Shown piece after piece: positions 14,776 to 57,420 of a stretch of DNA of 64,000 nucleotides. The position numbers and the translations under genes were made by a program. Each line of letters opens with the position of its first letter. Position 1 is the first letter of the stretch. Source of the DNA: Alphaproteobacteria bacterium (lineage in GTDB: Bacteria; Pseudomonadota; Alphaproteobacteria; RF32; CAG-239); NCBI GenBank assembly GCA_017480745.1, contig JAFUSA010000008.1, forward strand, positions 86,090 through 150,089, written 5' to 3'. Below the pieces are notes generated by a model. It had not been told where the DNA came from and ran no database searches. It saw only the letters and a program-made list of their open reading frames with translations.

Positions 14776-15516
14776 TCAGTCAACCCAATCCATATCCCAC
14801 TCTTCTGAATTAGGATCAATATCGAAATGAAAGGATATAGCTGTATCATCAGGATCTGATTCTATAACTTCTGAACATTTTTCCGTAATTTTATCTACAG
14901 GAATCGGAAAAGATTTGAAGTAATAACCAATATCACTATACAAAAGAACTGCACTAACATTTGCTGATGTCCAATCTTGACTCAACAGTTCAATACATGC
15001 TTCTTCATTATCTCCAATGTAGTAATCAAGACTAAACGCCTGATTATCACCGCTTTTGGATTTAATTGTCGGACCTAACACAACCCCGTAACCAAAAGGA
15101 TTGGTAATAGACATAATCTTACCATCAGTTACAGTAATCATTTCATCAGGGAATATTTTGGCTTTTTTAACTATCGGACAGCCATTGTAAGCAGATTTGC
15201 CTGCATTATAGTCATAACATTGACAACCGGAAGCGGGGCAAGTGCCATCCTTACTACTACAATCCGCCCCTTCATAATTTCCCTGTGGTCCCCAAAAGGC
15301 ACGCACATTGCCGGCAATGAGAGTTATCTGTTCAATAGTTTTGTTAATACGATATTTCATCATCGCTTTTGAATATCCGGCGATTCCGCCAACACTCAAA
15401 ACACCAATTATAGCCAGCACGCCCAACATCTCAATCATTGAGCGACCGCTCTGTGCATTTTTCGTCATTGCGAGCGCAGCGTGGCAATCTATATTTTTTA
15501 TCTCTAAGTTTCTCAT
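14776..15516 (-). CDS. Prepilin-like protein, paralog 1 (class III signal peptide, G|RSMIEML)
   Basis: MRNLEIKNIDCHAALAMTKNAQSG|RSMIEMLGVLAIIGVLSVGGIAGYSKAMMKYRINKTIEQITLIAGNVRAFW. Glu at +5, hydrophobic helix, conserved EACIEL..DW, and a C-terminal Cys. Confidence 0.8.
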   Translation of the reverse strand: MRNLEIKNIDCHAALAMTKNAQSGRSMIEMLGVLAIIGVLSVGGIAGYSKAMMKYRINKTIEQITLIAGNVRAFWGPQGNYEGADCSSKDGTCPASGCQCYDYNAGKSAYNGCPIVKKAKIFPDEMITVTDGKIMSITNPFGYGVVLGPTIKSKSGDNQAFSLDYYIGDNEEACIELLSQDWTSANVSAVLLYSDIGYYFKSFPIPVDKITEKCSEVIESDPDDTAISFHFDIDPNSEEWDMDWVD

Positions 15517-15552
15517 AGTAAACTTCCTTTCGTATGAATTGTTGATATTACA

Positions 15553-15763
15553 TTAAAACAATACCGCCCCAACGAGGCGGCCGGAAGCTGCAAACTATTT
15601 TACACGAAATAGCGCCGCATATTAATACAAGATTCTATTCTGCGACCTTCCGGCCACTGCCGGAAATTTTTACGTCCATACGACGCGTGTAAAAGAGGCT
15701 TGCAGGCCCCAGACAAGTTATCTCATCTTATGTTTACTATACCATAAAAAAATCCAAAGTCAA
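15553..15763 (-). promoter_or_regulatory. Class A structured leader of pilin paralog 1
   Basis: Minus strand: TTGACT (15763-15758), 16-nt spacer, TGgTATAGT (-10 at 15741-15736). All class A blocks present. Terminator gccgcctcgttggggcggtattgtttt. Confidence 0.75.
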
Positions 15764-15811
15764 ATATTTTTTGCTAAGAAACCATCAAAAATTGCTATAC
15801 TATTTAAATAT

Positions 15812-15852
15812 AAAAATACCGCCGATCTGTTACAGAGTTGGCGGTATTTTTT
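15812..15852. terminator. Bidirectional terminator hairpin downstream of pssA
   Basis: ataccgcc...ggcggtat flanked by an A-run and a T-run. Confidence 0.7.
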
Positions 15853-15863
15853 GGTAAAATAGA

Positions 15864-16718
15864 TTATTCCGCGGTTTCGGAACGTGATTCTTCATACGCC
15901 TTTTTCTCGCGCATAAAACGCACAACCGTAAACGGAACGGAAAGCATATAACACAAAGTAAACAAACCCAGTGTCAACCACGGTTTAGTAATAAGACAGC
16001 TAACAAACATCGCTAACAAAATCATAATCGGTAAAAACCAATCGCTGCTGATTTTTGTTTTTTTCAACGATATAGTCGGAATGCGGCTAACCATTAAATA
16101 AGCCACCAAAACCATCACCACGCTACAAAAATACGGACTGCGTAATATAAAGGAAATTTCCGGAAAGTCAAATGACATTAACATTGGCATAACTCCGATT
16201 GCTGCCGCCATAGGCGCCGGAACTCCCACAAAATAATGCGACCAATATTCTGGAACAGCCGAATCTTCAAGCATAGTATTAAAGCGAGCCAAACGCATTG
16301 CCATTGCTGCTGAAAACATTAGAGTAAAAATCCATCCCCAATGCGGTAAATTACACAAACTCCATTGATACATTAAAATAGCCGGAGCCACTCCGAAACT
16401 AACAAAATCTGAAAGCGAATCCAGCTCGGCACCAAATTTTGAGGAAGCTTTCAATTTGCGTGCCACACGACCATCCAGTCCATCAAAAACACTGGCAAAA
16501 AAGATAAAAATCAATGCCATTGTCCATTTGCCCAAAATAGCATAACGAATTGTGGTTATACCCGAGCATAACGCCATCAAAGTCACAATATTCGGCGCCA
16601 TTTTACGGAACGGAATTTCCTTAAACTTGCCGATAGCCTTTTTTTTGATTACCGCTTGACCTTTAACCAAGGCTTTTACTTTTGCGGAAGTATTTTTTTT
16701 CATTATTTTCTCCATCAA
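15864..16718 (-). CDS. pssA: CDP-diacylglycerol--serine O-phosphatidyltransferase
   Basis: CDP-alcohol phosphatidyltransferase motif DGLDGRVARKLKASSKFGAELDSLSD. Multi-TM protein. Confidence 0.85.
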   Translation of the reverse strand: MMEKIMKKNTSAKVKALVKGQAVIKKKAIGKFKEIPFRKMAPNIVTLMALCSGITTIRYAILGKWTMALIFIFFASVFDGLDGRVARKLKASSKFGAELDSLSDFVSFGVAPAILMYQWSLCNLPHWGWIFTLMFSAAMAMRLARFNTMLEDSAVPEYWSHYFVGVPAPMAAAIGVMPMLMSFDFPEISFILRSPYFCSVVMVLVAYLMVSRIPTISLKKTKISSDWFLPIMILLAMFVSCLITKPWLTLGLFTLCYMLSVPFTVVRFMREKKAYEESRSETAE

Positions 16719-16940
16719 TAAGGGAGTTGTTAACAGAAATCGCGAATCAGATATAAGATATCAACAGACTTTGCTTACACCCCCATAAAGAATGCCGAAA
16801 CGCTGTTTCAGCCACATTCTCACAAATTAATCAGAGGAGAGTTTATCCTCTTTCCGCAGATAAATAAACACATTTTGAAAAAAAATTCAAGTTTTATCTT
16901 GCATTTTAATTTTTTCTATGTATAACATCATTTAGCAGAT

Positions 16941-17027
16941 GCGCTTGTGGCGGAATCGGTAGACGCTGCAGACTTAAAATCTGTTGGGATTTATCCCGTG
17001 CCAGTTCAAGTCTGGCCTAGCGCACCA
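16941..17027 (+). tRNA. tRNA-Leu (anticodon UAA), CCA encoded
   Basis: 87 nt. Acceptor gcgcttg/ctagcgc, anticodon loop cuUAAaa, long variable arm, T arm gccag-ttcaagt-ctggc. Confidence 0.9.
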
Positions 17028-17032
17028 AAACA

Positions 17033-17066
17033 AAAGCTTTCACTCTCAGTGTGGAAGCTTTTTTTG
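17033..17066 (+). terminator. Terminator after tRNA-Leu(UAA)
   Basis: aaagctttcac...gtggaagcttt followed by a T-run. Confidence 0.75.
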
Positions 17067-17133: not shown

Positions 17134-17220
17134 TGGTGCCCTGAAGAAGACTCGAACTTCCACTGCCTGAGGCAACATGCACCTGAAGCATGCGCGTCTA
17201 CCAATTCCGCCATCAGGGCA
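17134..17220 (-). tRNA. tRNA-Leu (anticodon CAG), CCA encoded
   Basis: Reverse complement tgccctgatggcggaattggtagacgcg-catgc-ttCAGgt-gcatg..., long variable arm, ends in ...gggcacca. Confidence 0.9.
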
Positions 17221-17369: not shown

Positions 17370-17993
17370 TTACTTAACTTCTCCGCTGAGGGAGCTATCT
17401 GCGAAAAACATGATGACGGTATCATATCTATTAGTGCACATATTTACCGCTCCCTCCACACTAACCGGAACTTTTAAATCGTGCAAAGCTCCATCATCAT
17501 CACTGATAGTGATTATATTTATATTTGCTACTGTCCAGTCATAAGTTAATAGTTCAATACAAACTTCATCAGGAATATCATAATAGGCTATACTGAATGC
17601 TTTATTATCTTCCTCTTCTGCTAAACTAACCCCACCACCGAAAGGATTGGTAATAGAGGTGATTTTACCAGCCGCATTAATGGTAATCATTTCATCAGGG
17701 AATATTTTGGCTTTTTTAACTATCGGACAGCCATCACCGGAAGATTGCCCATAGCAACCGGCACTATTGCAATAACAACGCACCCCGATATAATTCTTCT
17801 GTGGTCCCCAAAAGGCATGCACATTTCCGGCAATGAGGGTTATTTGCTCAATGGTTTTATTGATTCTGTGTTTCATCATTGCTTTGCTATATCCGGCAAT
17901 TCCACCAACAGATAATACGCCGATTATGGCGAGCACTCCTAACATTTCTATCATTGAACGACCATTTTGATATTTAATTTCAAAGTTTCTCAT
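17370..17993 (-). CDS. Prepilin-like protein, paralog 2
   Basis: MRNFEIKYQNG|RSMIEMLGVLAIIGVLSVGGIAGYSKAMMKHRINKTIEQITLIAGNVHAFW...VCIELLTYDW. Confidence 0.8.
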   Translation of the reverse strand: MRNFEIKYQNGRSMIEMLGVLAIIGVLSVGGIAGYSKAMMKHRINKTIEQITLIAGNVHAFWGPQKNYIGVRCYCNSAGCYGQSSGDGCPIVKKAKIFPDEMITINAAGKITSITNPFGGGVSLAEEEDNKAFSIAYYDIPDEVCIELLTYDWTVANINIITISDDDGALHDLKVPVSVEGAVNMCTNRYDTVIMFFADSSLSGEVK

Positions 17994-18028
17994 AATCTTA
18001 TCTCCTAAATCATAGAGGTTAATACATT

Positions 18029-18260
18029 AAAAAAACTAACCGCCAAACGGCGGTCGGGAGAGGTAGAAAATCATATTAGTTGAAATGATTTCTGTGATCT
18101 TTAGACAATAGCCCTGTACATCCACCACAGACTCCCCAACCCACGTCGGAGATATTTCACATTCAATAACGATGTCAAAAACACCGCAACTAATAAGAGC
18201 TTTCTACAGCTCCGAACCGAAGTTCTAAGTTTATATTATCACAAAAAATCTAAAAGTCAA
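18029..18260 (-). promoter_or_regulatory. Class B structured leader of pilin paralog 2
   Basis: Minus strand: TTGACT (18260-18255), 16-nt spacer, TGaTAATAT. gaac-ttcg-gttc hairpin, atatctccgacgtgggttggggag, ctgtg..cacag, ctctcccgaccgccgtttggcggt + T-run. Confidence 0.75.
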
Positions 18261-21083: not shown

Positions 21084-21121
21084 GCCGAACAATCCTTTTT
21101 TTATAAAAACTGTTTGAATAA

Positions 21122-21186
21122 GTTACACTATTTAACCTAAAATAGCTATGAACTTCCGGCCGCCTCAGTGGGCGGTTGTTTTTATA
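21122..21186 (+). terminator. Terminator after ftsK, made from a 3' fragment of a class A leader
   Basis: cactatttaacctaaaatag + gaacttccggccgcctcagtgggcggttgttttt matches the last hairpin, third segment and terminator of class A leaders. Confidence 0.7.
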
Positions 21187-21195
21187 CATAATTTC

Positions 21196-21903: not shown

Positions 21904-21910
21904 TAGAGAA

Positions 21911-24921: not shown

Positions 24922-25671
24922 CTAATAAAATTTCAGAAGTAAAGCATTTTGATCGGCTTTTCCGTCAGCCGTTCCACAAACAGCGGCAGCATTGGCAGCA
25001 GTCATCGGACCTTTACCTCCGCAAGCAACACCCTCACCAACCGTACATGTTGTCACGGCAGTTTTAGCAAAATCGGTAACCGTTCCAGATGTTGCAGCTT
25101 TAGGTGTACAACCATTTTTCGGATTACCTTGAGCGTCTTTACAATCGTCTCCAGCATCTGCACCTGCCAATTCACCAGCAATTATTTTAGCCTGAATTAA
25201 ACCTGAACCGGAAGCTGAGCCCCAATCCTGAGTTGCCAAATCCATACATGCTTCTTCCGGAATATTATCAAAAACCAATACAAAAGATTTAGCATCACCG
25301 CAACCGGTGCAAGTACCGGTTTCTGTGGTGCTGCTGCGTGCACCCGCTTGCAGATAAATGTTTCCACCAAATGGATTGCCATTAGCTATTATTCCATCAC
25401 TTGTAATCAACTCATCCGGAAATAACTTTGCTTTGGCAATCAAACTTCCGTTTGTTGCGGCACCCAAAGCCTTGTAATTCTTTTGGCTACCGAACAGGGT
25501 GCGCACGTTGGTTACAATCATTGAAATTTGTTCAATAGTTTTATTAGTGCGATATTTCATCATCGCTTTGGAATAACCGGCAATACCACCAACGCTCAAC
25601 ACGCCGATAATTGCCAATACGCCGAGCATTTCAATCATGGAACGACCGGATTCGATATTGTGTGTTTTCAT
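24922..25671 (-). CDS. Prepilin-like protein, paralog 3 (divergent Cys/Gly/Ala-rich C-terminal half)
   Basis: Start trimmed to ATG 25671 behind gaaggag: MKTHNIESG|RSMIEMLGVLAIIGVLSVGGIAGYSKAMMKYRTNKTIEQISMIVTNVRTLF...EACMDLATQDW. Confidence 0.8.
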   Translation of the reverse strand: MKTHNIESGRSMIEMLGVLAIIGVLSVGGIAGYSKAMMKYRTNKTIEQISMIVTNVRTLFGSQKNYKALGAATNGSLIAKAKLFPDELITSDGIIANGNPFGGNIYLQAGARSSTTETGTCTGCGDAKSFVLVFDNIPEEACMDLATQDWGSASGSGLIQAKIIAGELAGADAGDDCKDAQGNPKNGCTPKAATSGTVTDFAKTAVTTCTVGEGVACGGKGPMTAANAAAVCGTADGKADQNALLLKFY

Positions 25672-25714
25672 TTTTAAATCTCCTTCTCGAAAAAAAATAT
25701 ATGTTATTAATACT

Positions 25715-25940
25715 AATTTTGACCGCCACTGGCGGTCGGAGAGTTTACAAATCATACCACATCAATGATCCTGCTAATCTTTAGGTAAACTACCCTGAAC
25801 ATCCACTAACAGCTCCCCGACCAAATCGGAGATATATCATCTGTCAACGACGTTTTTTCCACGTCGAATGCGGTATGAGCTTGTAAAGGCTCTGAACCGA
25901 AGTTCTGAATTTATGATAACATAAAAAATGAAAAAGTCAA
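25715..25940 (-). promoter_or_regulatory. Class B structured leader of pilin paralog 3
   Basis: Minus strand: TTGACT (25940-25935), 16-nt spacer, TGtTATCAT. gaac-ttcg-gttc, cgacgt..acgtcg, tctccgatttggtcggggag, ctgttag..ttagcag, ctctccgaccgccagtggcggtc. The U-tract after the last hairpin is poor in this copy. Confidence 0.7.
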
Positions 25941-27082: not shown

Positions 27083-27772
27083 TTAACATCCATCAGGTAA
27101 TGAACAGCGATTTAGTTCTTTTTGCCAATAGGTGGAACTTTGCTGGATATCAAATAAAAAACTTATAGTTACCTGATCAAGATCAGAACAAACATTTATG
27201 GCATCATCAATGGCTATCGGAGGCAATAGATAATACTCCGGTTCTTCTCCATTTGTCTTTATGTTATAAGCATATATAATAGAAGCAAGACTAAGTGATG
27301 TCCAATCTTGTGTCAGCAATTCAATACAAACTTCTTCATTATGTGTAAACAATCCTATTCTAAAAGCCTTCTCATCTCCCTCGCTTATCTTATCCGCAGC
27401 TGCCAGAGCAACACCATCTCCCCAAACATCTTTAATGTAATTATAATCACCATCCCACATTTCATCGGGCACAAGTTTGGCTTTTTTAATAACCTTTTTA
27501 TCATCCAATCCAGCATAGTTTCCTTGCGGAGCAAAAAACGAGCGTATGTTTCCGGCAATGAGAGTTATTTGTTCAATGGTTTTGTTGATCCTATACTTAG
27601 TCATCGCCTTTGAATATCCGGCGATTCCGCCAACAGAAAGCACGCCGATGATGGCAAGAACGCCTAACATCTCTATCATAGAGCGACCGCATTGCGTGGC
27701 AAAGCGACACTTATAGTCATGCCTGTGCATGTTAATAATTTCTTTGATACTTTTTATATCTAAGTTTTTCAT
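27083..27772 (-). CDS. Prepilin-like protein, paralog 4 (29-aa presequence)
   Basis: MKNLDIKSIKEIINMHRHDYKCRFATQCG|RSMIEMLGVLAIIGVLSVGGIAGYSKAMTKYRINKTIEQITLIAGNIRSFF...VCIELLTQDW. Confidence 0.8.
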   Translation of the reverse strand: MKNLDIKSIKEIINMHRHDYKCRFATQCGRSMIEMLGVLAIIGVLSVGGIAGYSKAMTKYRINKTIEQITLIAGNIRSFFAPQGNYAGLDDKKVIKKAKLVPDEMWDGDYNYIKDVWGDGVALAAADKISEGDEKAFRIGLFTHNEEVCIELLTQDWTSLSLASIIYAYNIKTNGEEPEYYLLPPIAIDDAINVCSDLDQVTISFLFDIQQSSTYWQKELNRCSLPDGC

Positions 27773-27810
27773 AGTATACTTCCTTTCATTTTTGTTGTTG
27801 ATATTACACT

Positions 27811-28017
27811 AAAACAACCGCCCGATAAGGCGGCCGGAAGTTCGAAACTACTTCTACATAAATAGTGTCATGTATTAAAAAAACTATCTATTCCATGACC
27901 TTCCAGCCAATGCCGGAAATATTAACGCCATTTACAGCGATGTAGAAAGAGGTTTCGACACCTCAGACAAGTTACCTCATCTTGTTTTTATGATAGCATA
28001 AAAAAACTAAAAGTCAA
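27811..28017 (-). promoter_or_regulatory. Class A structured leader of pilin paralog 4
   Basis: Minus strand: TTGACT (28017-28012), 16-nt spacer, TGcTATCAT. All class A blocks present. The gtcatg/catgac stem carries a double compensatory change. Confidence 0.75.
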
Positions 28018-30559: not shown

Positions 30560-30764
30560 TTGACATAAGGGATTTTTTGGTTTAATATGATCCTCATGAT
30601 GAGGTAAAAATCATCTGGGGTCTCTAAGCCTCTTTAAACCCGTCTTTGTAGACGTAATTTTTCCAGCTTGGCTGGAAGGTCGTGGAATAGTTAATGAATG
30701 AATACGCGACACTGTTTGGTTTAAATAGTTTAGAGCTTCCAGCCACCTCTCGGAGGTGGTTTTA
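30560..30764 (+). promoter_or_regulatory. Class A structured leader of pilin paralog 5
   Basis: TTGACA 30560-30565, 17-nt spacer, TAATAT 30583-30588. The three repeated segments all carry ccagc/gctgg instead of ccggc/gccgg. Terminator ccacctc-tcg-gaggtgg + tttt. Confidence 0.75.
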
Positions 30765-30797
30765 ATGTAATTTTAATTAAGTGAAAGGAAGTTTACT

Positions 30798-31430
30798 ATG
30801 AGAAACTTAGAAATTAAAAATCAAAATGGCCGTAGTATGATAGAGATGCTTGGCGTGCTTGCCATAATCGGCGTGCTTTCTGTGGGCGGAATTGCCGGAT
30901 ACAGCAAAGCAATGCAAAAGTATAAAATCAATAAAACCATTGAACAAATAACTCTCATTGCCGGTAATATACGTGCTTTCTTTGCTAATCAACCCGAAGG
31001 AACTAAATACACGGATTTATATTCCGAAGGCGAAAAAGCACAAATACTAAAAAAAGCGAGGTTAATTCCTGATGAAATGTGGAATGGATCTAAAATAGAA
31101 AATATTTTTGGAGGTGCGACATACATTAGTTATTTGGGTACATCTGGTAATATTGATTATAGAAGTTTTCTCATTAATTTAGGAAACATACCACAAGAAG
31201 CTTGTATTGAACTTTTAACACATGATTGGAGCGCATCAGGAGTATATGTTATGGGTAATGTGAGTGCATTAGCTTATGGTGCTAAGGCAAGTCATGATAA
31301 TTGCGAAACAAAGGAAATTATGAGTGGACCTTATTCGTTTGGCTATACATATTGTGGTACATCAATGCCCATGGAAACAGCAATAGAATTTTGTAAGGAG
31401 GTAACAGATTTTTATTTAGGATTCCATTAA
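30798..31430 (+). CDS. Prepilin-like protein, paralog 5
   Basis: MRNLEIKNQNG|RSMIEMLGVLAIIGVLSVGGIAGYSKAMQKYKINKTIEQITLIAGNIRAFF...EACIELLTHDW. Confidence 0.8.
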   Translation: MRNLEIKNQNGRSMIEMLGVLAIIGVLSVGGIAGYSKAMQKYKINKTIEQITLIAGNIRAFFANQPEGTKYTDLYSEGEKAQILKKARLIPDEMWNGSKIENIFGGATYISYLGTSGNIDYRSFLINLGNIPQEACIELLTHDWSASGVYVMGNVSALAYGAKASHDNCETKEIMSGPYSFGYTYCGTSMPMETAIEFCKEVTDFYLGFH

Positions 31431-35236: not shown

Positions 35237-35980
35237 TTATCTGAAATAAAAGTGTAATTCAGCGTCATCAGAACAAGTGCTTGCGGCTTTATCAACGCTT
35301 ATCGGTAATGTTTTGTTGTAAATACAGCCAACATTATCATCATCCCAATAATCTCCCGTTACACAATCAAACATTACAGCACTGTCATCTTCATTTATTG
35401 CCAGAGCTATTAAATCGCTGACAGACCAATCATGTGTGGATAGTTCAATACAGGCTTCTTGCGGTAAACCATAAAGGGTTATCTTATAGCCCGTCACTGT
35501 TTTACTTCCGTTGCTGCCCCAATAATCGTAAATATAAACCGCACCACCAAAAGCATTGGTTATATTCGTGATATTACCGTCGGAATCTAATGTCAGCATT
35601 TCATCGGGTACAAGTTTGGCTTTTTTGATAATTGCTTTTCCTGTATCAGAATACGAAGATAATCCGTCATAATTTCCTTGCGGGCCGAAGAATGCCCGAA
35701 CATTACCGGCGATTAAAGTTATTTGCTCAATAGTTTTATTGATGCGATACTTTTGCATTGCCTTTGAATATCCGGCGATTCCGCCAACAGATAACACGCC
35801 GATGATGGCAAGAACACCAAGCATTTCTATCATTGAGCGACCATTCTGTCCGCCCTCAACATTTTGCACTTCTTTTGAGTTAAACAAAGCATTGCAATAA
35901 ATATTCTGCGGAGCGAACGAATGTTCGCGACCTGATGCGTTAGCATCACAAATAGTTTGTTTGAAATTACAATTTCCCAT
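35237..35980 (-). CDS. Prepilin-like protein, paralog 6 (46-aa presequence)
   Basis: MGNCNFKQTICDANASGREHSFAPQNIYCNALFNSKEVQNVEGGQNG|RSMIEMLGVLAIIGVLSVGGIAGYSKAMQKYRINKTIEQITLIAGNVRAFF...EACIELSTHDW. Confidence 0.78.
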   Translation of the reverse strand: MGNCNFKQTICDANASGREHSFAPQNIYCNALFNSKEVQNVEGGQNGRSMIEMLGVLAIIGVLSVGGIAGYSKAMQKYRINKTIEQITLIAGNVRAFFGPQGNYDGLSSYSDTGKAIIKKAKLVPDEMLTLDSDGNITNITNAFGGAVYIYDYWGSNGSKTVTGYKITLYGLPQEACIELSTHDWSVSDLIALAINEDDSAVMFDCVTGDYWDDDNVGCIYNKTLPISVDKAASTCSDDAELHFYFR

Positions 35981-36015
35981 AGTAAACTTTCTTTCATTTT
36001 TGTTGATATTACACT

Positions 36016-36222
36016 AAAACAACCGCCCGATAAGGCGGCCGGAAGTTCGTAACTACTGCAATTAATAGTGTCGCATATTCAACCCATAGTCTTATTCTGC
36101 GACCTTCCGGCCACAAAGCCGGAAATTTTTACGTCTTTAAGACGAATTGCAAGAGGTTACGACACCTCAGACAAGTTACCTCATCTTGATTTTATGATAG
36201 CATAACAAAAACTGAAAGTCAA
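36016..36222 (-). promoter_or_regulatory. Class A structured leader of pilin paralog 6
   Basis: Minus strand: TTGACT (36222-36217), 17-nt spacer, TATCAT (36199-36194). Canonical class A blocks. Terminator ggccgccttatcgggcggttgtttt. Confidence 0.75.
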
Positions 36223-36301: not shown

Positions 36302-36531
36302 TTGACATTTTAAAATTTTGTGATATAGTAATCACAGAACTACGGTTCGGGGCTTTCATCGGCTCTCATTACGCTTGGTGTGTAAAAAACACTATCATAA
36401 GGTATGTAATATCTCCGATTGGGTCGGGGAGACTGCAATGGATGTTCAGAGCTTTTGCTTAAAGATTGTAGTGATTATTAGCGTAATGTAATTGATGAAC
36501 TCCCCTGCCGCCGTTTGGCGGTTAAATTTTT
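36302..36531 (+). promoter_or_regulatory. Class B structured leader of pilin paralog 7
   Basis: TTGACA 36302-36307, 16-nt spacer, TGaTATAGT (-10 at 36324-36329). gaac-tacg-gttc, atatctccgattgggtcggggag, ctgcaa..ttgtag, actcccctgccgccgtttggcggt + T-run. Confidence 0.75.
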
Positions 36532-36565
36532 AATGTGTTAACCTTTAATTTTAGGAGATAAAATT

Positions 36566-37213
36566 ATGATAAACTATAATAATGAAAACGGTCGTTCGAT
36601 GATAGAGATGCTGGGCGTATTAGCTATCATTGGTGTTTTAAGTGTTGGTGGTATCGCTGGATATACCAAGGCGATGATGAAATACAGAATCAATAAAACC
36701 ATCGAGCAAATTACTCTTATTGCCGGCAATGTGAGAACGTTTTTCGCAAATCAAAAAACAATTTCATTAAGATTTAATAAAGATGGTCCACAGGATGAAG
36801 CAAGTGAAAAAATTGTCAGAAAGGCAAGGTTAGTGCCGGAAGAAATGATGTATTTGAATGGTGATGGCGAAATAGTGTATCTTGTAAGTACGTTTGGTGA
36901 ACGTTTTTTTGTAATAGGAAGTCCATCAAGCAAGTTCTTTTCCTTATATTTTTATAATCTTCCACAGGAGGCTTGTATTGAATTGTTATCGCATGATTGG
37001 AATAACGCTAATGCTTCTGCAATTAGTGTTAATGGCGGTGAATATCTTACTTTTTTTCTTCCAGTAAACGTGGATGATGCCGTGAAAGCCTGTGATTACA
37101 TCAACCGTAGCCTCGATAGTAATGGTGATTATAATGTATCGATATTATTTGACTACACCGGAGATATGACGGATGCTGTAAATGAAACAAAAGAAATATT
37201 GAGCAAATTATAA
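36566..37213 (+). CDS. Prepilin-like protein, paralog 7
   Basis: MINYNNENG|RSMIEMLGVLAIIGVLSVGGIAGYTKAMMKYRINKTIEQITLIAGNVRTFF...EACIELLSHDW. Confidence 0.8.
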   Translation: MINYNNENGRSMIEMLGVLAIIGVLSVGGIAGYTKAMMKYRINKTIEQITLIAGNVRTFFANQKTISLRFNKDGPQDEASEKIVRKARLVPEEMMYLNGDGEIVYLVSTFGERFFVIGSPSSKFFSLYFYNLPQEACIELLSHDWNNANASAISVNGGEYLTFFLPVNVDDAVKACDYINRSLDSNGDYNVSILFDYTGDMTDAVNETKEILSKL

Positions 37214-42050: not shown

Positions 42051-42257
42051 TTGACTTTTGAGCTTTTTATGATATAGTAAAAGCAAGATGAGGTAACTTG
42101 TCTGAGGTGTCAGAACCTCTTGCAATTCGTCTTAAAGACGTAAAAATTTCCGGCTTTGTGGCCGGAAGGTCGTGGAATAAAACTATAGGTTGAATATGCG
42201 GCACTATTAATTGCAGTAGTTCTGAACTTCCGGCCGCCCTTATCGGGTGGTTGTTTT
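42051..42257 (+). promoter_or_regulatory. Class A structured leader of pilin paralog 8 (reference copy)
   Basis: TTGACT 42051-42056, 16-nt spacer, TGaTATAGT (-10 at 42073-42078). Segment 1 ttccggc 42148-42154, segment 2 gccggaagg 42161-42169, segment 3 cttccggcc 42227-42235. Terminator cggccgccc/gggtggttg + tttt to 42257. Confidence 0.78.
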
Positions 42258-42292
42258 AGTGTAATATCAACAAAAATGAAAGGAAGTTTACT

Positions 42293-42970
42293 ATGAAAAA
42301 CTTAGAAATAAAAAATCAAAACGGTCGTTCAATGATAGAGATGTTAGGTGTTCTTGCCATCATCGGTGTTTTGAGTGTCGGTGGAATCGCCGGATATTCC
42401 AAAGCTATGCAAAAATATAGAATTAACAAAACCATTGAGCAAATAACACTTATTACCGGAAACGTTCGCTCATTTTTTGCCAGTCAAGGAAATTATAGGG
42501 GATTAAGTTCAACTAATACAGGAAAAGCGATTATCAAAAAAGCTAAACTTGTACCTGATGAAATGTTAGAGCTCAATGCCGATGGTACCATAAAGCAAAT
42601 TAACAACTCTTTCGGCGGAACGGTTTTGATTGAAGCTGCTAATAAATCAAGTTCAGCTAATGGAAGTGAGCCTATATACATTTATGGTGATGAAAAAGCT
42701 TTTGCTTTATCTTTCAGCGATATTCCGCAGGAGGCCTGTATTGAATTGGTAACACAAGATTGGAGCGAGGCCAACATCGGAGCCCTCCAAAAAGGAGGTT
42801 TTATTCCTACTAAGAATAATGTAATTTTTACACCGGCAAGCATCGATATCGCCACGAATATGTGTGGTTCTACAAATGAAATATCTTTTTTTGCTGATGT
42901 TGATACTAATTCCACTTATTGGAAAGGTCTTTTGGGTGATGAAAAGTTGGTGGGTACTATCGGTAATTAG
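42293..42970 (+). CDS. Prepilin-like protein, paralog 8
   Basis: MKNLEIKNQNG|RSMIEMLGVLAIIGVLSVGGIAGYSKAMQKYRINKTIEQITLITGNVRSFF...EACIELVTQDW...NMCG. Confidence 0.8.
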   Translation: MKNLEIKNQNGRSMIEMLGVLAIIGVLSVGGIAGYSKAMQKYRINKTIEQITLITGNVRSFFASQGNYRGLSSTNTGKAIIKKAKLVPDEMLELNADGTIKQINNSFGGTVLIEAANKSSSANGSEPIYIYGDEKAFALSFSDIPQEACIELVTQDWSEANIGALQKGGFIPTKNNVIFTPASIDIATNMCGSTNEISFFADVDTNSTYWKGLLGDEKLVGTIGN

Positions 42971-47754: not shown

Positions 47755-48348
47755 ATGGAAAAAGACGAATTACAGAATTTTTTAATTAACATAGGGCGCT
47801 CTATGGTGCAGGAAAACGGCACAGATGCGCTGACAGTGCGCAAATTGTCCGAAGCTTCCAAATGCTCGGTCGGCGCCATATATAACCAGTTTTCCAATAT
47901 GGATAACTATATCGTGATCCAAAATTGCATAACTCTTGATGAGTTACACGCTGCTTTAAGCAAAGTGCAACGTTCCAACAACGTGTTCATCGATATGAAT
48001 AATTATTTGCAGACTTTTGTTGACTATGTTTTGGATAATAAAAATTTATGGTATATGCTTTATACCTTTCACTTGAAACATAATAAATATCGCTATTCAT
48101 CATTTTATTTGCGCAAAATAATAAAAATTGTGCGTATTGTTAATGAGCTGCTAAAAGATGCCACTCCGCGAGTTGAAAGACCTGAACGTCTGCTTTCGGC
48201 TCAGGTTTTATGGCTGACAATGTTTTCACTCAGCGCCTTGCTCACTAAGGATATTTTAGACTCTTTTTCCAAAATCAATCGCCGCAATTTGTGTGAAATT
48301 GTTTTGAATACTTTTGTTGCCGGTATGACTGTGCTGGAAAATAGGTAA
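47755..48348 (+). CDS. TetR-family transcriptional regulator
   Basis: N-terminal HTH: GTDALTVRKLSEASKCSVGAIYNQF. Confidence 0.8.
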   Translation: MEKDELQNFLINIGRSMVQENGTDALTVRKLSEASKCSVGAIYNQFSNMDNYIVIQNCITLDELHAALSKVQRSNNVFIDMNNYLQTFVDYVLDNKNLWYMLYTFHLKHNKYRYSSFYLRKIIKIVRIVNELLKDATPRVERPERLLSAQVLWLTMFSLSALLTKDILDSFSKINRRNLCEIVLNTFVAGMTVLENR

Positions 48349-48360
48349 TTTTTAAACAAA

Positions 48361-48546
48361 GCGCTCGCCGACGTGTTGAAAGCTACCTAATAGAATAGTG
48401 TCGCATATTATACAATTTATTCTGCGACCTTCCGACCATTGTCGGAAACATTTTACGTCCTGTCTGACGCTATTAGAGAGGCTTTCAAACCTCAGACAAG
48501 TTACCTCATCTTACTTAGATACTATCACAAAAAATGTAAAAGTCAA
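48361..48546 (-). ncRNA. Orphan class A leader-like RNA with promoter but no downstream gene
   Basis: Minus strand: TTGACT (48546-48541), 16-nt spacer, TGaTAGTAT. Then gatgaggtaacttgtctgaggtttgaaagcctc, cgtc..gacg, tttccgacaatggtcggaagg, gtcgca..tgcgac, cactatt. The 3' part diverges and runs into the convergent tetR stop. Confidence 0.6.
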
Positions 48547-50859: not shown

Positions 50860-51651
50860 TTAATACCACGTTACTCCCAGATCAGCGGCTTCCTTCTTAT
50901 AAAAACTTTCATCTGCATCAAAAAATAAAGATACACTTGTACTAATTACATCATCTTCAGGATCGACGTACGCATATGAACATATGTTGACAGCATTATC
51001 AATAGATATTGGTAAAGAAAAACTTGCTTTATCTATAGTTTGCAAGTTATTTACCGAAATAAAACTGACATTTGCGTTAGTCCAGTCATGTGTTAAAAGT
51101 TCTATACAAGCTTCTACGTTATTTCCTATGTCATACGTAACATCAAATGCTTGATCTTCACTATTAAATGATTTATAATTTGCATTTAATACAACTTTTC
51201 CACCAAAAACATTTTCCAAAGCCGTTTTGTCACTATTCCACATTTCATCAGGGACTAATTTAGCTTTGTGTATTATTTTTCTGCCATTAGTTTCATTGCT
51301 ATTCAATCCTTTATAATTCCTCTGCGGAGCAAAAAATGTTCGCACATTGCCGGCAATTAAAGTTATTTGCTCAATAGTTTTGTTGATGCGATATTTGGTC
51401 ATTGCTTTGCTGTATCCGGCGATTCCGCCAACCGAAAGAACGCCAATAATTGCCAACACGCCAAGCATTTCAATCATTGAACGTCCGCTCTGCGTGGCAA
51501 AACCACACTTATAGTCATGCCTCGATTCCGCAGGAATCGTCAAGTCATCTTCTGCTTGATTAAAATTAATTTGAAGATCCCTTGACGCATTCGCCTTTGC
51601 AAGGCTCTGCGAGGGATGACTTTTTATATTTTTTATTTTTAAGTTATTCAT
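50860..51651 (-). CDS. Prepilin-like protein, paralog 9 (56-aa presequence)
   Basis: MNNLKIKNIKSHPSQSLAKANASRDLQINFNQAEDDLTIPAESRHDYKCGFATQSG|RSMIEMLGVLAIIGVLSVGGIAGYSKAMTKYRINKTIEQITLIAGNVRTFF...EACIELLTHDW. Confidence 0.78.
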   Translation of the reverse strand: MNNLKIKNIKSHPSQSLAKANASRDLQINFNQAEDDLTIPAESRHDYKCGFATQSGRSMIEMLGVLAIIGVLSVGGIAGYSKAMTKYRINKTIEQITLIAGNVRTFFAPQRNYKGLNSNETNGRKIIHKAKLVPDEMWNSDKTALENVFGGKVVLNANYKSFNSEDQAFDVTYDIGNNVEACIELLTHDWTNANVSFISVNNLQTIDKASFSLPISIDNAVNICSYAYVDPEDDVISTSVSLFFDADESFYKKEAADLGVTWY

Positions 51652-51689
51652 AGTAAACTTCCTTTCATCTGAATTGTTGATATTACATT

Positions 51690-51895
51690 AAAACAACCGC
51701 CCGATAAAGGCGGCCGGAAGTTGACGACTATTTAAGATTAGATAGTGTGGCTTATTTGGTTCACCCTTATTCAACCACCTTCCAGCCATACTGGAAAATT
51801 TTTACGTCTTCAAAGACGACTTCAAAGAGGTTTTCAGACCTCAGACAAGTTACCTTATCTTGTTTTCACTATATCATAAAAAACGCAAAAGTCAA
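51690..51895 (-). promoter_or_regulatory. Class A structured leader of pilin paralog 9
   Basis: Minus strand: TTGACT (51895-51890), 16-nt spacer, TGaTATAGT. The gtggtt/aagccac stem is compensatory relative to gtcgca/tgcgac. Terminator ggccgcctttatcgggcggttgtttt. Confidence 0.75.
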
Positions 51896-51971: not shown

Positions 51972-52733
51972 CTATTTTGTAGCGTTAACTTCTTTCAGTT
52001 TGAAAGTTGCAAACTCACCCTCTGTCGGAATATTCAAGTTCATTTTGGTATTAGGTGCAACATCAGCGGCTTCAACTCCGCCCTCATAAATTAACTCACC
52101 TTTATCATCAAAGAAACTTATTGAAATAACTACGCTTTTGAAAGTGTTTTCACCTGAATTTTCTACTTTACCGCAAACACCTTGTTCACATTTGCTGAGT
52201 TCGGAAATTTTTAAGCCATCTTTATCATAGGTATTTTCATCGGCCTTAGGTGTTTCTGCCTTAGGGGCAATCTGTGTAACTTCTGCCTTAGGTGCAGGTG
52301 CAGGCTTAACCGGTTCAGATGACGGCCAAATAATATAGAAGAAAAGGAAAACACCGGCAACCACAACGGCTGTAAGCGGAATTTTTTTACCTTTAACTTC
52401 AACATATTTACCCTTGAGATGTTTGTCATACAAAGCTTTACTCAAACCGGCAGCTTTGCGTGAAGCATCGCCGTAATTTTTATCTTTAATTAAACCGGCA
52501 AGCTCTTTAACTTCTTTAATAGCATTAACATCACTTGCCGAAACCGGAGTTTCAGCCACAGGCGCTTCTGCTACCGGTTCACTGATTTCTGCCGAAGTTT
52601 CCCCTGCCGGAGCTTCCTCAACAGGAGCAACCGGTTCACTTGGTATTTCCTCAACCGGAGCTACAGGAGCTGCCTCTTCAACAGGTGCTTCCGGAGCCAC
52701 ATTTTCTTCTTTTACTTCTTCATTTTCTGTCAT
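51972..52733 (-). CDS. Membrane-anchored protein with Pro/Ala/Glu repeats and a C-terminal beta-rich domain
   Basis: Repeats APVEE.., a single TM (LTAVVVAGVFLFFYIIW), and a C-terminal region with ISFFDDKGELIYEG. Confidence 0.55.
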   Translation of the reverse strand: MTENEEVKEENVAPEAPVEEAAPVAPVEEIPSEPVAPVEEAPAGETSAEISEPVAEAPVAETPVSASDVNAIKEVKELAGLIKDKNYGDASRKAAGLSKALYDKHLKGKYVEVKGKKIPLTAVVVAGVFLFFYIIWPSSEPVKPAPAPKAEVTQIAPKAETPKADENTYDKDGLKISELSKCEQGVCGKVENSGENTFKSVVISISFFDDKGELIYEGGVEAADVAPNTKMNLNIPTEGEFATFKLKEVNATK

Positions 52734-52753: not shown

Positions 52754-53707
52754 TTAGTCAAATAATTGAACACCGCGAGAAAGTCTGATTCTCTGCGATT
52801 CTATTGTTGTTGATAAATTTAATTTTCCGCTCTTAATTATGCCGCGCAACTGGTCTCCCTTTGTGCCATCCGGATTAGCAAACACATATTCAAGTTCCGG
52901 ATGCTTAGGAACACCTACCAAACGTTGGTGTAACACACTGAGAACACCGTTACCCACCAAATCATACGACATATCTTCCGAAATACCGCTGGCAGCCGCA
53001 TATTTTACGATTGACTGAATGGCATCCGTTACAGTACTTGCGTGAATAGTAGAAAGCACTAAGTGGCCGGAAATAGCCGCACGCAGAGCTTCTGATGCAA
53101 TTTCAGGATCACGTATCTCACCCAAATAAACATAACGTGGTTTAGAACGCAACATGGACTTCAAACCCTCAGACCACGAACCTCCCGGAGGTGTCATCTG
53201 TTTGCAAATACCAAGTTCGCCGTTTACCGTATGATACGTGCCATCCAAAGGCATTTCAACCGGATCTTCCAACGTAAACGCATATCCGCCGTCACGAATT
53301 AAATACTCGCGCAACAACGCAGATAATGTTGTTGTTTTACCGGAACCAGTTGTTCCTGCCATTAATATCAAGCCGGAAGCACCGCTGAGCGATTTAAGAT
53401 ATTTAAGCAGATGATCCTCAATTCCAAGCTTATTGATATCCGGAACTGTATGAGGCATTTTACGTGCACAATACTGCTGACCATCTAATGTAACCGTTCT
53501 TTCCACACGATAGTTAAGTCCTTTGTATTTTACCAAATACGAAGGATTATTCCCATCGTATGTATCCATCACTGTTTGATAAAATTCCTGATAATCATCC
53601 GGCTCAACCTGAATCAAGCCGCTCGGAGTTTTACGTCCCCAAATATAGGCCGTTCCATCCGGAATAATATAAATATCGGAAAAATCAACTTCATTTACTG
53701 TAGCCAT
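52754..53707 (-). CDS. Type II/IV secretion-family ATPase, PilT-like (317 aa)
   Basis: Walker A GTTGSGKTTT, Asp box FTLEDPVE, Walker B/Arg LGEIRD, His box SGHLVLSTIHAS. Confidence 0.8.
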   Translation of the reverse strand: MATVNEVDFSDIYIIPDGTAYIWGRKTPSGLIQVEPDDYQEFYQTVMDTYDGNNPSYLVKYKGLNYRVERTVTLDGQQYCARKMPHTVPDINKLGIEDHLLKYLKSLSGASGLILMAGTTGSGKTTTLSALLREYLIRDGGYAFTLEDPVEMPLDGTYHTVNGELGICKQMTPPGGSWSEGLKSMLRSKPRYVYLGEIRDPEIASEALRAAISGHLVLSTIHASTVTDAIQSIVKYAAASGISEDMSYDLVGNGVLSVLHQRLVGVPKHPELEYVFANPDGTKGDQLRGIIKSGKLNLSTTIESQRIRLSRGVQLFD

Positions 53708-55229: not shown

Positions 55230-55257
55230 ACATATTACGTAAATTATATTAGTCCCG

Positions 55258-55287
55258 AAAGTACCGTCATATGGCGGTACTTTTTTT
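55258..55287 (+). terminator. Terminator after the FadL-family gene
   Basis: gtaccgtc..ggcggtac followed by a 7-nt T-run. Confidence 0.75.
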
Positions 55288-55409
55288 GTGAGAAACAAAC
55301 GCCGAAGACCACGTAACATTGACAAAAAATAACCGAAAAAATTACTTGACACGGAAAATATTATATGTTAAAAATGGTGCAATTATTCTGTAAAATTAAA
55401 GAGGTAAAA

Positions 55410-56378
55410 ATGGTTAAATTAAACGAAAACACATCTTATAAAAGAGGGCAAGAATTATTAGATTCCGGCCACTATGAAGAGGCAATTGAAAAATTTGCCG
55501 AAGTTATAGCGGAGAATCCTCGGGCTTGGAAAGCGTTAAACAGTCAGGGTTTTGCCTTTCAAAAGATGAGTAAGTATACCGATGCGGTAAATTGTTTTGA
55601 TACGGCGTTGTCCATAAATCCAAAGTCGGTGGAAGTTTTGAATAATAAAGGTGTTACACTGAGTATGCGCGGACTATATAAAGAAGCAATAGCTTGTTTT
55701 GATGAGGCTTTTGCCAACGACCGCACTTCATTGGAAGCCTTAAACGGTAAAGCTATTGCCCTGCAACATATGTTTTCATATAAAGAAGCCTTGGATGTTT
55801 TGGAAGAAGCCATGAAAATTGACAATAAACATCCGCAAACACTACTCAGCATTGCCGTAACATTGCAAAAATTAAAACAATATGACCGTTCTATCTCTTT
55901 CTTTAAGAAAGTTTTATCCGGTGACAAGTTTAACACCAAAGCATGGAACGGAATTGGCGTTACTTATCAGTTAATGGGTGATAATGATTCTGCGTTAAAA
56001 TGCTTTACTAAAATTTTAAACATAAATAGTCAGGATTTACAAGCCTGGGTTTCTATCGGCTATGTATATCAAAAAATGTTCAAATTTAAGGATGCTTTGA
56101 AGTGCTATAAAAAAGCTCAAGCCGTTGTAAACGGACGTTACACACATAAATTATATGACGGATTAGCTTCTTGTTTGACCAAGCTTTCAGAGTTTGACCA
56201 AGCAATAGAGGTTTATAAAATAATTTATCAAAGTGAAGAAGGTAAACGTAAGTGGGATGCCCAACGTTCAATAAAGTTTGTTAATAAACTGAAACGTAAG
56301 CAGGCGATTGGCGCTTTGCCGGAAATTACTCCGCATAGCGATGATGATGGTAGCGGAAGTTCTGCTCCGGCTGAATAA
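55410..56378 (+). CDS. Tetratricopeptide (TPR) repeat protein
   Basis: Repeated 34-aa A..A/Y..A units (EEAIEKF.., YKEAIACFDEA.., YKEALDVLEEA..). Start at 55410 behind gaggt. Confidence 0.75.
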   Translation: MVKLNENTSYKRGQELLDSGHYEEAIEKFAEVIAENPRAWKALNSQGFAFQKMSKYTDAVNCFDTALSINPKSVEVLNNKGVTLSMRGLYKEAIACFDEAFANDRTSLEALNGKAIALQHMFSYKEALDVLEEAMKIDNKHPQTLLSIAVTLQKLKQYDRSISFFKKVLSGDKFNTKAWNGIGVTYQLMGDNDSALKCFTKILNINSQDLQAWVSIGYVYQKMFKFKDALKCYKKAQAVVNGRYTHKLYDGLASCLTKLSEFDQAIEVYKIIYQSEEGKRKWDAQRSIKFVNKLKRKQAIGALPEITPHSDDDGSGSSAPAE

Positions 56379-56407
56379 AGATATTTGCACTTAATACTAT
56401 ATAGAAT

Positions 56408-56438
56408 ATCCGCCGAGTCAGCTTGGCGGATTTGTTTG
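56408..56438 (+). terminator. Terminator after the TPR gene
   Basis: atccgcc..ggcggat followed by ttgtttg. Confidence 0.65.
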
Positions 56439-56550
56439 TCAACACTGCCAACTTGGATCAATATTTACGGAATTACTTTTGGGGATTGATAATTTGCTTA
56501 AAGCCCTGCACAAATGCAGGGCTTTATGTCATGTTTATTGAATATTTAAC

Positions 56551-57420
56551 CTACTTAAAACCCAATATAATCTCGCAAGTATCTTCTGTGCACGAACATG
56601 CGGCAACAGCTTTTTCCAGTGGAAGCGGCAAAGTATTTCCCGCTGGACAAAAATACCTATCATCTTCCGCGGTACAATCATTATCCGCGACATTAGCCAT
56701 ATCTCCGTCCAACGTTTCATTGATATACATACCTACAACATTTGCGGCTTGCCAATCATGACTGGCTATCTCAATACAGGCTTCTGCCGGTAAATATGCT
56801 ATGCTTATGCCAAAAGCTGTAAAACCATTAGTTACATTCTCCGATAATACAACCCCACCACCGAAGGGATTGGTAATAGCGGTAATTTTTTTACCGGTAG
56901 AATCAAGAGTAATCATTTCATCCGGTAATATCTTGGCTTTTTTTATTATCGGACAGCCATTGACAGTAGAAGTAGGATAGCCGCTGCTGCTAACACCGCC
57001 ATCACTTCCCTTACATCCGTTGGTTGCATTGCAGGTATAACCACTACAATTAACCCCGATATAGTTCTTCTGTGGTCCCCAGAAAGCACGCACATTGCCG
57101 GCAATTAATGTTATTTGCTCAATAGTTTTATTGATGCGATACTTTTGCATTGCCTTACTATATCCGGCTATTCCGCCAACGCTTAATACGCCGATTATAG
57201 CCAGTACGCCTAACATCTCGATCATTGAACGACCAGACTGCGGCGCATCTGCACCACTCTCCGCAAGAGGTGAACATCCACTCTGTTCACTTTTTGCATC
57301 AAGCACTTCTTTTGCAGTTAAAAACGTATTGCAACAAATATTCCATGGAGCGGATGAAAATCCGCGACCCGGCGCACCAGCGCCGTTAATGTTTTGTTTA
57401 GAATTTATATTTCTCATCAT
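56551..57420 (-). CDS. Prepilin-like protein, paralog 10 (63-aa presequence)
   Basis: MMRNINSKQNINGAGAPGRGFSSAPWNICCNTFLTAKEVLDAKSEQSGCSPLAESGADAPQSG|RSMIEMLGVLAIIGVLSVGGIAGYSKAMQKYRINKTIEQITLIAGNVRAFW...EACIEIASHDW. Confidence 0.78.
   Translation of the reverse strand: MMRNINSKQNINGAGAPGRGFSSAPWNICCNTFLTAKEVLDAKSEQSGCSPLAESGADAPQSGRSMIEMLGVLAIIGVLSVGGIAGYSKAMQKYRINKTIEQITLIAGNVRAFWGPQKNYIGVNCSGYTCNATNGCKGSDGGVSSSGYPTSTVNGCPIIKKAKILPDEMITLDSTGKKITAITNPFGGGVVLSENVTNGFTAFGISIAYLPAEACIEIASHDWQAANVVGMYINETLDGDMANVADNDCTAEDDRYFCPAGNTLPLPLEKAVAACSCTEDTCEIILGFK

Follow-up and report, generated by a model that had tools for sequence, protein, structure and literature searches.

Why would a gut alphaproteobacterium scatter ten copies of a pilin-like gene among its housekeeping genes, and what could decide which of them are expressed? 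This question is raised by a 64,000-nucleotide stretch of DNA from an Alphaproteobacteria bacterium of the CAG-239 lineage (assembly GCA_017480745.1, contig JAFUSA010000008.1, positions 86,090 to 150,089), hereafter called the window, in which an initial reading of the letters (the original prediction) had proposed ten dispersed open reading frames (ORFs) encoding a non-canonical prepilin-like family. The analysis reported here establishes that these ORFs are homologs of type IVb (T4b) major pilins and that an RNA leader, overlooked by the original prediction, stands before each copy. From sequence comparison and modelling, we consider it likely that they are ten functional T4b major-pilin-like paralogs whose helix is maintained by selection, that they serve one and the same machine, and that each lies behind a two-state leader RNA.

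Ten homologs of type IVb major pilins

The ten ORFs start exactly where the original prediction had placed them, according to the ORF listing and the translations (the start is the higher coordinate on the minus strand and the lower one on the plus strand), and a six-frame motif search retrieved exactly 10 copies of their shared block in the window. Lengths are in amino acids (aa).

14776..15516, minus strand: T4b pilin paralog 1, 246 aa, 24-aa leader peptide (Pfam Bundlin 27.9 bits, above the gathering score; alignment A1)
17370..17993, minus strand: T4b pilin paralog 2, 207 aa, 11-aa leader peptide (Pfam PilS 42 bits)
24922..25671, minus strand: T4b pilin paralog 3, 249 aa from the conserved ATG, 9-aa leader peptide (PilS 35.6 and Bundlin 31.5 bits; placement of ribosome-binding site (RBS) and ATG); its C-terminal extension is rich in Cys, Gly and Ala
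27083..27772, minus strand: T4b pilin paralog 4, 229 aa, 29-aa leader peptide (Bundlin 40.4 and PilS 30.9 bits)
30798..31430, plus strand: T4b pilin paralog 5, 210 aa, 11-aa leader peptide (PilS 32.5 bits)
35237..35980, minus strand: T4b pilin paralog 6, 247 aa, 47-aa leader peptide (PilS 39.1 and Bundlin 31.3 bits)
36566..37213, plus strand: T4b pilin paralog 7, 215 aa, 9-aa leader peptide (PilS 28.5 bits)
42293..42970, plus strand: T4b pilin paralog 8, the modelled copy, 225 aa, 11-aa leader peptide (PilS 39.6 and Bundlin 32.3 bits; AlphaFold2; Foldseek)
50860..51651, minus strand: T4b pilin paralog 9, 263 aa, 56-aa leader peptide (Bundlin 41.6 bits); its head is replaced in strain L204
56551..57420, minus strand: T4b pilin paralog 10, 289 aa, 63-aa leader peptide (no Pfam pilin domain above threshold; 56% identity to paralog 1, with all invariant columns)

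All ten paralogs have the core GRSMIEMLGVLAIIGVLSVGGIAGYSKAM in common, and the block GRSMIEMLGVLAIIGVLSVGGIAGY(S/T)KAM is, as proposed, invariant in alignment A1, in which the other motifs of the original prediction, namely P(D/E)E(M/L), FGG, (E/V)AC(I/M)(E/D)L...DW and a late Cys, also appear as conserved columns (invariant: P123, E125, G142, E172, C174, D181, W182 and C214). Leader peptides of 9-63 aa, all ending in Gly, are followed by RSMIEMLGVLAIIGVLSVGGIAGY with its Glu5 in 10/10 copies, and the residues given for -1 (Gly), +1 (Arg), +3 (Met) and +5 (Glu) were all described correctly. The class III signal begins with a hydrophilic leader, variable in length, whose last residue is Gly or Ala; a stretch of 20-25 hydrophobic residues follows, in many cases with Glu5 (PMC10191384), and the ten paralogs satisfy this definition by their Gly-ended leader, hydrophobic helix and Glu5. 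Long leader peptides are typical of T4b pilins (PMC10191384), some of those found here being extraordinarily long (47-63 aa). The label "non-canonical" was thus overstated, since long leaders and a residue other than Phe at +1 suit the T4b class, the one oddity of the signal being its invariant charged Arg at +1.

The shared block is conserved far beyond chance. Indeed, over its 58 codons the DNA of the copies is only 63-83% identical, third positions vary in 54/58 codons and Ser codons alternate between TCN and AGY, while the 29-residue protein core shows no variation among the ten copies. Identical protein together with saturated synonymous sites implies that purifying selection, and not gene conversion or recent duplication, holds the core, and also that the paralogs are old; gene conversion as the source of the identical N-terminus is hence ruled out. 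Moreover, G-R-S-M-I-E-M is unchanged across 80 homologs, and Arg +1 was found in 113/113 copies in the collected DNA.

Regarding protein identity, hidden Markov model searches placed 9/10 paralogs above the Pfam gathering score for PilS (PF08805) and/or Bundlin (PF05307). A profile of 80 family members searched against the PDB matched bundlin (BfpA, E = 1.3e-5) and PilS of S. Typhi (E = 6e-3), with the NPFGG and AC..L motifs of the family aligned to ITNPFGG and AACVSL of bundlin. The AlphaFold2 model of the copy at 42293 (predicted local distance difference test 84.3, predicted template modelling score 0.78) has an N-terminal helix of ~50 residues (13-62) and a beta-sheet head, and the best 16 PDB matches of this model in Foldseek are all T4b pilins (CofA, TcpA and PilS), the next match, at E = 0.09, being noise. 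With the Pfam pilin domains, the T4b pilin fold and the machinery cluster present in relatives, the prepilin reading is supported.

The ten pilin genes are monocistronic and scattered among housekeeping genes rather than set inside an assembly operon. The claim that they are not clustered with pilus genes needs one correction: the following gene, two genes upstream of the pilin at 50860-51651, had been overlooked.

52754-53707, minus strand: small T2SSE-family ATPase, 317 aa (Pfam T2SSE 114.3 bits)

This ATPase is 58-59% identical to its ortholog, the small ATPase of a T4b cluster in the related genomes L054, L019 and others. In 13 relatives (L054, L019 and 11 more), the small ATPase closes a cluster, immediately behind a family pilin, with the order TcpQ-like / Secretin / PAP_PilO / T2SSE / T2SSF / pilin / small T2SSE; the products of this cluster include a lipoprotein secretin, an R64-type PilO, a T2SSE ATPase of 560 aa and a platform protein of the T2SSF family. 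This cluster is a T4b machine resembling those of R64, the toxin-coregulated pilus (TCP) and the bundle-forming pilus (BFP), and the lineage thus possesses a T4b machine. The same cluster is carried by L196, a metagenome contig chosen solely by its RNA leader, with a leader and a lipoprotein gene occupying the pilin slot. Probing ~2 Mb with E. coli GspO and PppA identified a single prepilin peptidase, a Peptidase_A24 protein of 242 aa (56.5 bits) on the leader-bearing contig L125, in which no methyltransferase-associated N-terminal domain was detected; a regex search among the first 80 loci returned no prepilin peptidase. Within the window, neither a peptidase nor a platform gene was found; the cluster is seen in relatives and on L196, and the peptidase in one leader-bearing organism, the window itself showing the small ATPase only.

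The family is large and its heads are diverse. A word-indexed search gave 7,931 matches among 8,000 candidates, many of them named "MAG: Alphaproteobacteria bacterium" (MAG, metagenome-assembled genome) and many per MAG, and an exhaustive search of 50%-identity representatives gave 5,244 at E <= 1e-3, 1,617 at <= 1e-10 and 146 at <= 1e-30. Species-representative genomes contain at least 580 exact-motif stretches; every match listed comes from an Alphaproteobacteria bin of gut or rumen origin, Proteobacteria bacterium CAG:495 and Acetobacter sp. CAG:977 being among them. One ENA contig from a gut metagenome contains a region that matches the window at 100% identity, and the organism of the window is present in at least 16 contigs. 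Beyond the invariant motif columns, the paralog heads are weakly conserved (mean column identity of 37% in A1). In strain L204 (8892-9671, compared with 50860-51651 of the window), the flanks of pilin 9 are ~98% identical and its head only 50/134 aa identical; the 56-aa leader peptide is retained, the helix is kept, with 97% identity over the first 60 mature residues, the breakpoint lies inside the conserved helix-coding region, and 98% identity returns just beyond the pilin gene. The replaced head matches none of the ten copies of the window. Other strain comparisons (around S16) were mostly 99-100% identical and hence uninformative on head variability.

Several observations accompany the pilin genes. 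The length range of the leader peptides (9-63 aa) results from in-frame insertions between MRNLEIKN and QNG, found in the following regions.

15447-15516, minus strand: leader-peptide region with insertion
27688-27772, minus strand: leader-peptide region with insertion
35842-35980, minus strand: leader-peptide region with insertion
51486-51651, minus strand: leader-peptide region with insertion
57234-57420, minus strand: leader-peptide region with insertion

The inserts are alike in pairs (27083 with 50860, and 35237 with 56551), GC-richer, stably folding and retained in another strain. We rejected mobile repeats resembling miniature inverted-repeat transposable elements or repetitive extragenic palindromes as their origin, each insert being confined to its own locus, its strain copies or, partly, one paralog. 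Independent metagenome contigs, among them L207, L208 and L211, end inside the pilin gene 35237-35980 (window ~35600-35850), which suggests that assemblies break either in the repeated 5' block or where heads vary among strains, and pilin copy numbers in MAGs are therefore probably underestimated. The gene at 51972-52733 (minus strand), which separates the small ATPase from the leader of pilin 9, encodes a protein of 253 aa that belongs to no Pfam family, has one transmembrane segment and is repetitive and rich in Ala, Pro and Glu in its N-terminal half; the ATPase and this gene are kept as a pair in strain contigs L203-L206. In the relatives, a ~212-229-aa protein encoded just before the pilin slot (L196 8585-9223; L054 9189-9878) has the motif SACISL, a late Cys and a conserved C-terminus, with no Pfam match; judging by these features, it may be a minor or initiator pilin. 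Finally, two divergent long-arm tRNA genes (16941-17024, plus strand, 54.5 bits; 17137-17219, minus strand, 51.6 bits; Rfam) separate a phosphatidylserine-synthase-like gene from pilin 2.

The leader RNA and its alternative folds

Every pilin gene is preceded by a conserved TG-extended sigma-70-type promoter, a ~190-nt leader, a GC hairpin with a U-run, and an RBS; each is its own transcription unit, with a predicted promoter and leader. Two sequence classes can be distinguished, class A on six pilin copies and class B on four, and the 64-kb window holds 12 leader occurrences, plus fragments. Scores are those of covariance model R1 for class A and of nhmmer with alignment A6 for class B.

15543..15726, minus strand: class A leader of paralog 1 (152.8 bits)
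27799..27980, minus strand: class A leader of paralog 4 (153.3 bits)
30601..30778, plus strand: class A leader of paralog 5 (129.8 bits)
36004..36184, minus strand: class A leader of paralog 6 (166.7 bits; terminator 36041-36020, promoter 36222-36194)
42088..42269, plus strand: class A leader of paralog 8 (155.6 bits; promoter 42051-42078, terminator 42231-42253)
51678..51858, minus strand: class A leader of paralog 9 (147.8 bits)
18018..18223, minus strand: class B leader of paralog 2 (148 bits; class A covariance model cross-match 26.2 bits)
25705..25903, minus strand: class B leader of paralog 3 (141 bits)
36339..36546, plus strand: class B leader of paralog 7 (140 bits; promoter 36302-36329, terminator 36507-36522)
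57435..57650, minus strand: class B leader of paralog 10 (144 bits)
3313..3493, plus strand: class A leader before a non-pilin 91-aa ORF, 3516-3791 (142.2 bits)
48343..48509, minus strand: orphan full-length class A leader with its own promoter and no cargo gene (101.6 bits, model positions 1-193)

The leader is predicted to adopt two mutually exclusive folds, a terminator and an antiterminator state, both conserved and supported by covariation. An unbiased scan of all column pairs in class A (25 copies from ~18 MAGs) detected eight covarying helices, some of them mutually exclusive, and class B has the same helices in the same order. In class A, the terminator state (P1, P2, P3, P4 and the terminator) is 95.9% paired, with double changes in 24/32 pairs; 0/500 shuffles match the observed value, and slid controls are 34-47% paired. 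The antiterminator state (local hairpin, P2, antiterminator (AT) helix, P4 and P5) is 97.9% paired, with double changes in 20/28 pairs. Taken together, the two folds are 96-98% paired, slid controls 30-50%. The AT helix, of 9 bp (GGCCGGAAG/CUUCCGGCC), forms between the 3' arm of P3 and the 5' terminator arm. In an independent set of 99 distinct metagenome copies, chosen on the sequence of the AT/P4/P5 core alone, pairing amounts to 97.0% for the terminator state and 97.8% for the antiterminator state, with 471 compensatory cells versus 113 +/- 18 in shuffles; in class B, the corresponding values are 98.5% and 97.5%. Up to four pair types occur per position among the leader copies, and the most conserved nucleotides form the three-way junction of the AT helix, P4 and P5.

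A further partnership emerged from an alignment-free permutation test: a hypervariable segment located 3' of the local hairpin is complementary to the P5 loop of the same copy. At least 6 consecutive bp can form with the own partner in 95-96% of copies, versus 12-13% with the loop of another copy. This own-copy pairing implies that P1 is ~20 bp long and that three helices swap between the states. As the terminator state is the minimum-free-energy fold in 7/7 copies, by 4-10 kcal/mol, the default would seem to be off.

No known RNA family accounts for the leader. At the gathering threshold, Rfam found two tRNAs only in the whole window and no leader match; a permissive scan of one class B leader gave no match below E = 0.87, and that of one class A leader gave nothing usable either. 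The covariance model built on class A also picks up three copies of class B.

What do these leaders control? A metagenome scan by the leader-core pattern alone yielded at least 120 stretches. The matches listed are all from gut or rumen samples, and among them 111 downstream genes could be assigned: 49 family pilins and 62 others, mostly lipoproteins, outer-membrane beta-barrels, BspA-type leucine-rich-repeat proteins, surface-glycan glycosyltransferases, XRE regulators and small proteins like that of ORF 3516-3791. In the loci selected for pilins, a sample biased toward them, 33/48 leaders precede pilins. Since it also precedes other envelope genes, the leader marks an envelope and surface regulon of which pilins are the largest client. 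The idea that it is universal to the pilin family was discarded, as only ~30/107 upstream regions carry it; other lineages have tandem pilin arrays or different upstream motifs instead, genomes with a pilin inside the T4b cluster have no leader, and the leader is limited to part of the lineage.

Other copies and motifs deserve mention. The product of ORF 3516-3791 has no Pfam match, and small proteins like it, with the motif ..Y(I/V)xx(I/L)(S/T)xN(K/R)(F/L)P(F/L).., follow leaders in L132, L138 and L190. The orphan leader at 48343-48509 points into the 3' end of a convergent TetR-like gene (47755-48348) and may be an independent RNA of ~190 nt, an antisense transcript or a remnant after gene loss. 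A fragment at 20971-21194 (plus strand; core 21114-21186) holds only the 3' half of class A (P4, P5, the 3' strand of AT and the terminator); it begins within the end of ftsK (stop codon 21083), whose terminator it may now provide. A TTTTGCAAAAA palindrome is found upstream of the -35 box in only ~4/12 copies. The pilin genes of MAG SGB_1681 (L003, L007, L008, L010, L023 and L057) have no leader and carry two copies of a perfect palindrome, TGTCCGAAAAAAGGGATCCCTTTTTTCGGACA, upstream, which looks like a different, lineage-specific control element.

Weighing the alternatives

Several points weigh against the reading of ten functional pilins behind a default-off switch. PF07963 (N_methyl) reaches 13-17.9 bits in the ten paralogs, below its cut-off of 21.2 in all of them, and TIGR02532 scores 12.2-16.8 bits for a cut-off of 16.3, which 5/10 paralogs attain, a borderline result; to our knowledge, no characterised T4b pilin has a charged Arg at +1. 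The full machine and the peptidase are presumed for the window's own genome from relatives, the small ATPase alone being visible there, and the A24 peptidase follows directly on a gene for a VirD4/TraG-type coupling protein of type IV secretion systems (L125 8-1834), so that it may be part of a conjugative element rather than the housekeeping enzyme. The head replacement concerns one locus in one strain pair. As for the RNA, the default-off state was deduced from equilibrium energies and not from co-transcriptional folding, and alignment A7 was fitted to the model and thus favours the modelled structure.

The alternative that survives best concerns the input of the leader, which, instead of being a metabolite riboswitch, could be an attenuator dependent on a protein or an RNA, such as a NusG/RfaH/LoaP-like protein, a BglG-type factor or a trans-acting RNA. 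We take this as a serious contender, although we would stop short of even chances. The regulons of RfaH, UpxY and LoaP consist of envelope and surface genes, and the one described here resembles them in having no metabolic theme; in addition, a P1 of ~20 bp is very long for a riboswitch, two sequence classes share one architecture, and terminated leaders, together with the orphan copy, would be abundant ~190-nt RNAs bearing competing strands. Conversely, no candidate factor is named, the most conserved nucleotides gather at the AT/P4/P5 junction as they do in ligand pockets, and in Clostridioides difficile a riboswitch is already known to govern type IV pili and adhesins (PMC11477304). Tentatively, and with more doubt than conviction, we propose that the leader represents a novel class of riboswitch, or else is acted on by a novel antiterminator dedicated to it, and that it holds a default-off repertoire of interchangeable T4b major pilins, along with lipoproteins, outer-membrane proteins, leucine-rich-repeat adhesins and glycan enzymes, under one signal.

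The proteins themselves might be ordinary signal-anchored membrane or periplasmic proteins with a pilin-like N-terminus, never cleaved or polymerised, as the unusual Arg +1, the subthreshold PF07963 scores in 10/10 copies, the absence of peptidase and platform genes from the window and the leader peptides of up to 47-63 aa would allow. We judge this improbable, because the heads share homology with bundlin and PilS and have a fold like that of CofA and TcpA, because a family member fills the pilin slot of a complete T4b cluster in relatives, and because Gly -1, Glu5 and the helix have stayed invariant in spite of saturated synonymous change, as filament packing or recognition by a machine would require.

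Likewise, a conserved 5' block with variable 3' parts, the breakpoint of L204 in the conserved helix region and the metagenome contigs that often terminate within pilin genes recall Neisseria-like cassettes, with one expressed locus and silent donors recombining through the shared block. This arrangement appears highly improbable here: the ten ORFs are complete and each has a conserved promoter, leader, RBS and start codon of its own, their saturated and only 63-83% identical block DNA indicates no recent conversion among the paralogs, and the L204 head is unlike all ten copies of the window.

Hardly credible, lastly, is the notion that the ~190 nt upstream are a relic of duplication or a protein-operator region and no functional RNA switch, for even if the leaders belong to paralogs probably arisen by duplication, and the pilin family exists without the leader in other lineages, pairing of 96-98% has been kept through hundreds of compensatory changes while coding synonymous sites became saturated, the hypervariable segment is complementary to its own partner only, the leader also precedes unrelated gene families and it ends in a canonical intrinsic terminator.

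Proposed mechanism and comparison with known systems

On the preferred reading, that of functional T4b pilins behind a two-state leader, each paralog would be made as a prepilin whose hydrophilic leader of 9-63 residues, ending in Gly, precedes the helix RSMIEMLGVLAIIGVLSVGGIAGY and would be cleaved after this Gly by an A24 prepilin peptidase. A single R64/BFP-like T4b machine (secretin, TcpQ-like protein, PilO, extension ATPase, platform protein and small second ATPase) would polymerise the subunits and, the assembly helix being identical, any paralog should fit it. As the exposed heads differ and appear exchangeable between strains, they would form a repertoire of alternative pilus surfaces, which might serve adhesion and the evasion of antibodies or phages. 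At the RNA level, the ~20-bp P1 would close P2, P3 and P4 and let the intrinsic terminator form; in the alternative state, the local hairpin, P5 and the AT helix would form, the latter sequestering the 5' arm of the terminator. The genes would thus be off by default until an input, possibly a small molecule, a protein or an RNA, stabilises the antiterminator, and the same leader would control other envelope genes, pilins being the largest client of a cell-surface regulon.

If so, a gut bacterium would re-dress its pilus and surface by an RNA-level choice among dispersed genes, without DNA rearrangement, and the two leader classes would answer different inputs. In common uncultured gut and rumen Alphaproteobacteria, the T4b-type subunit forms a very large and hyperdiverse multigene family. 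The leader provides RNA biologists with a well-supported orphan switch absent from Rfam, whose signal can now be sought, and microbiome research with a concrete handle on surface variation in these organisms. Our literature search found no description of the pilin expansion or of the leader.

The type IVb pili known so far are mainly virulence pili of enteric Gammaproteobacteria, each encoded in a single operon. The paralogs resemble BfpA (bundlin), PilS (S. Typhi and R64), TcpA and CofA in their Pfam families, fold, ITNPFGG and AC..L motifs and conserved Cys pair, and T4b major pilins in general in their long leader peptides, Gly -1, Glu5 and mature size of ~200 aa, while the relatives share PAP_PilO, a TcpQ-like protein and a lipoprotein secretin with the R64 and TCP machines. 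They differ by their invariant Arg +1, leader peptides of up to 63 aa, a predicted RNA attenuator per copy, and ten or more dispersed monocistronic copies in place of one gene within an operon. As T4b pilus genes are normally clustered (PMC10191384, PMC6668835) and described mainly in Gammaproteobacteria (PMC6668835), and the host is here a gut alphaproteobacterium, the host, the dispersal, the copy number, Arg +1 and the RNA gating represent new variations.

For the leader, the nearest precedent is the cyclic di-GMP-II (c-di-GMP-II) riboswitch of C. difficile, which gates a type IV pilus operon and adhesins (PMC11477304) and is likewise a 5' leader RNA placed before pilin and other surface genes; the present leader has no detectable similarity to c-di-GMP-I or -II, and is distinguished by a P1 closing three hairpins, a three-helix swap and one copy per pilin paralog. 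Among RNA families, the 3' half of class A (the AT helix enclosing P4/P5, and the U-rich tail) aligns to the whole model of sRNA-Xcc1 (RF02221), an integron-borne RNA of Xanthomonas, with 34.3 bits and E = 2e-4 in a 351-nt search, that is, below the gathering score of 53; class B gives no match, and sRNA-Xcc1 has been described as a trans-acting small RNA and not as a leader.

The combination of a constant assembly module and variable exposed parts recalls the pilE/pilS system of Neisseria and the PilV shufflon of R64, and here as there recombination can use the constant part. Unlike there, all copies are complete and independently promoted, with neither a shufflon recombinase nor silent cassettes, and the choice among them would be made by transcription attenuation and not by DNA rearrangement. 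Finally, Elusimicrobia, Planctomycetes (with their DUF1559 proteins) and Verrucomicrobia encode dozens of scattered class III signal proteins per genome, with a GFTLIEL signal of the type IVa or type II secretion type and unrelated heads. The family described here stands apart from these expansions by consisting of T4b major-pilin homologs that share an identical helix and a common RNA leader.

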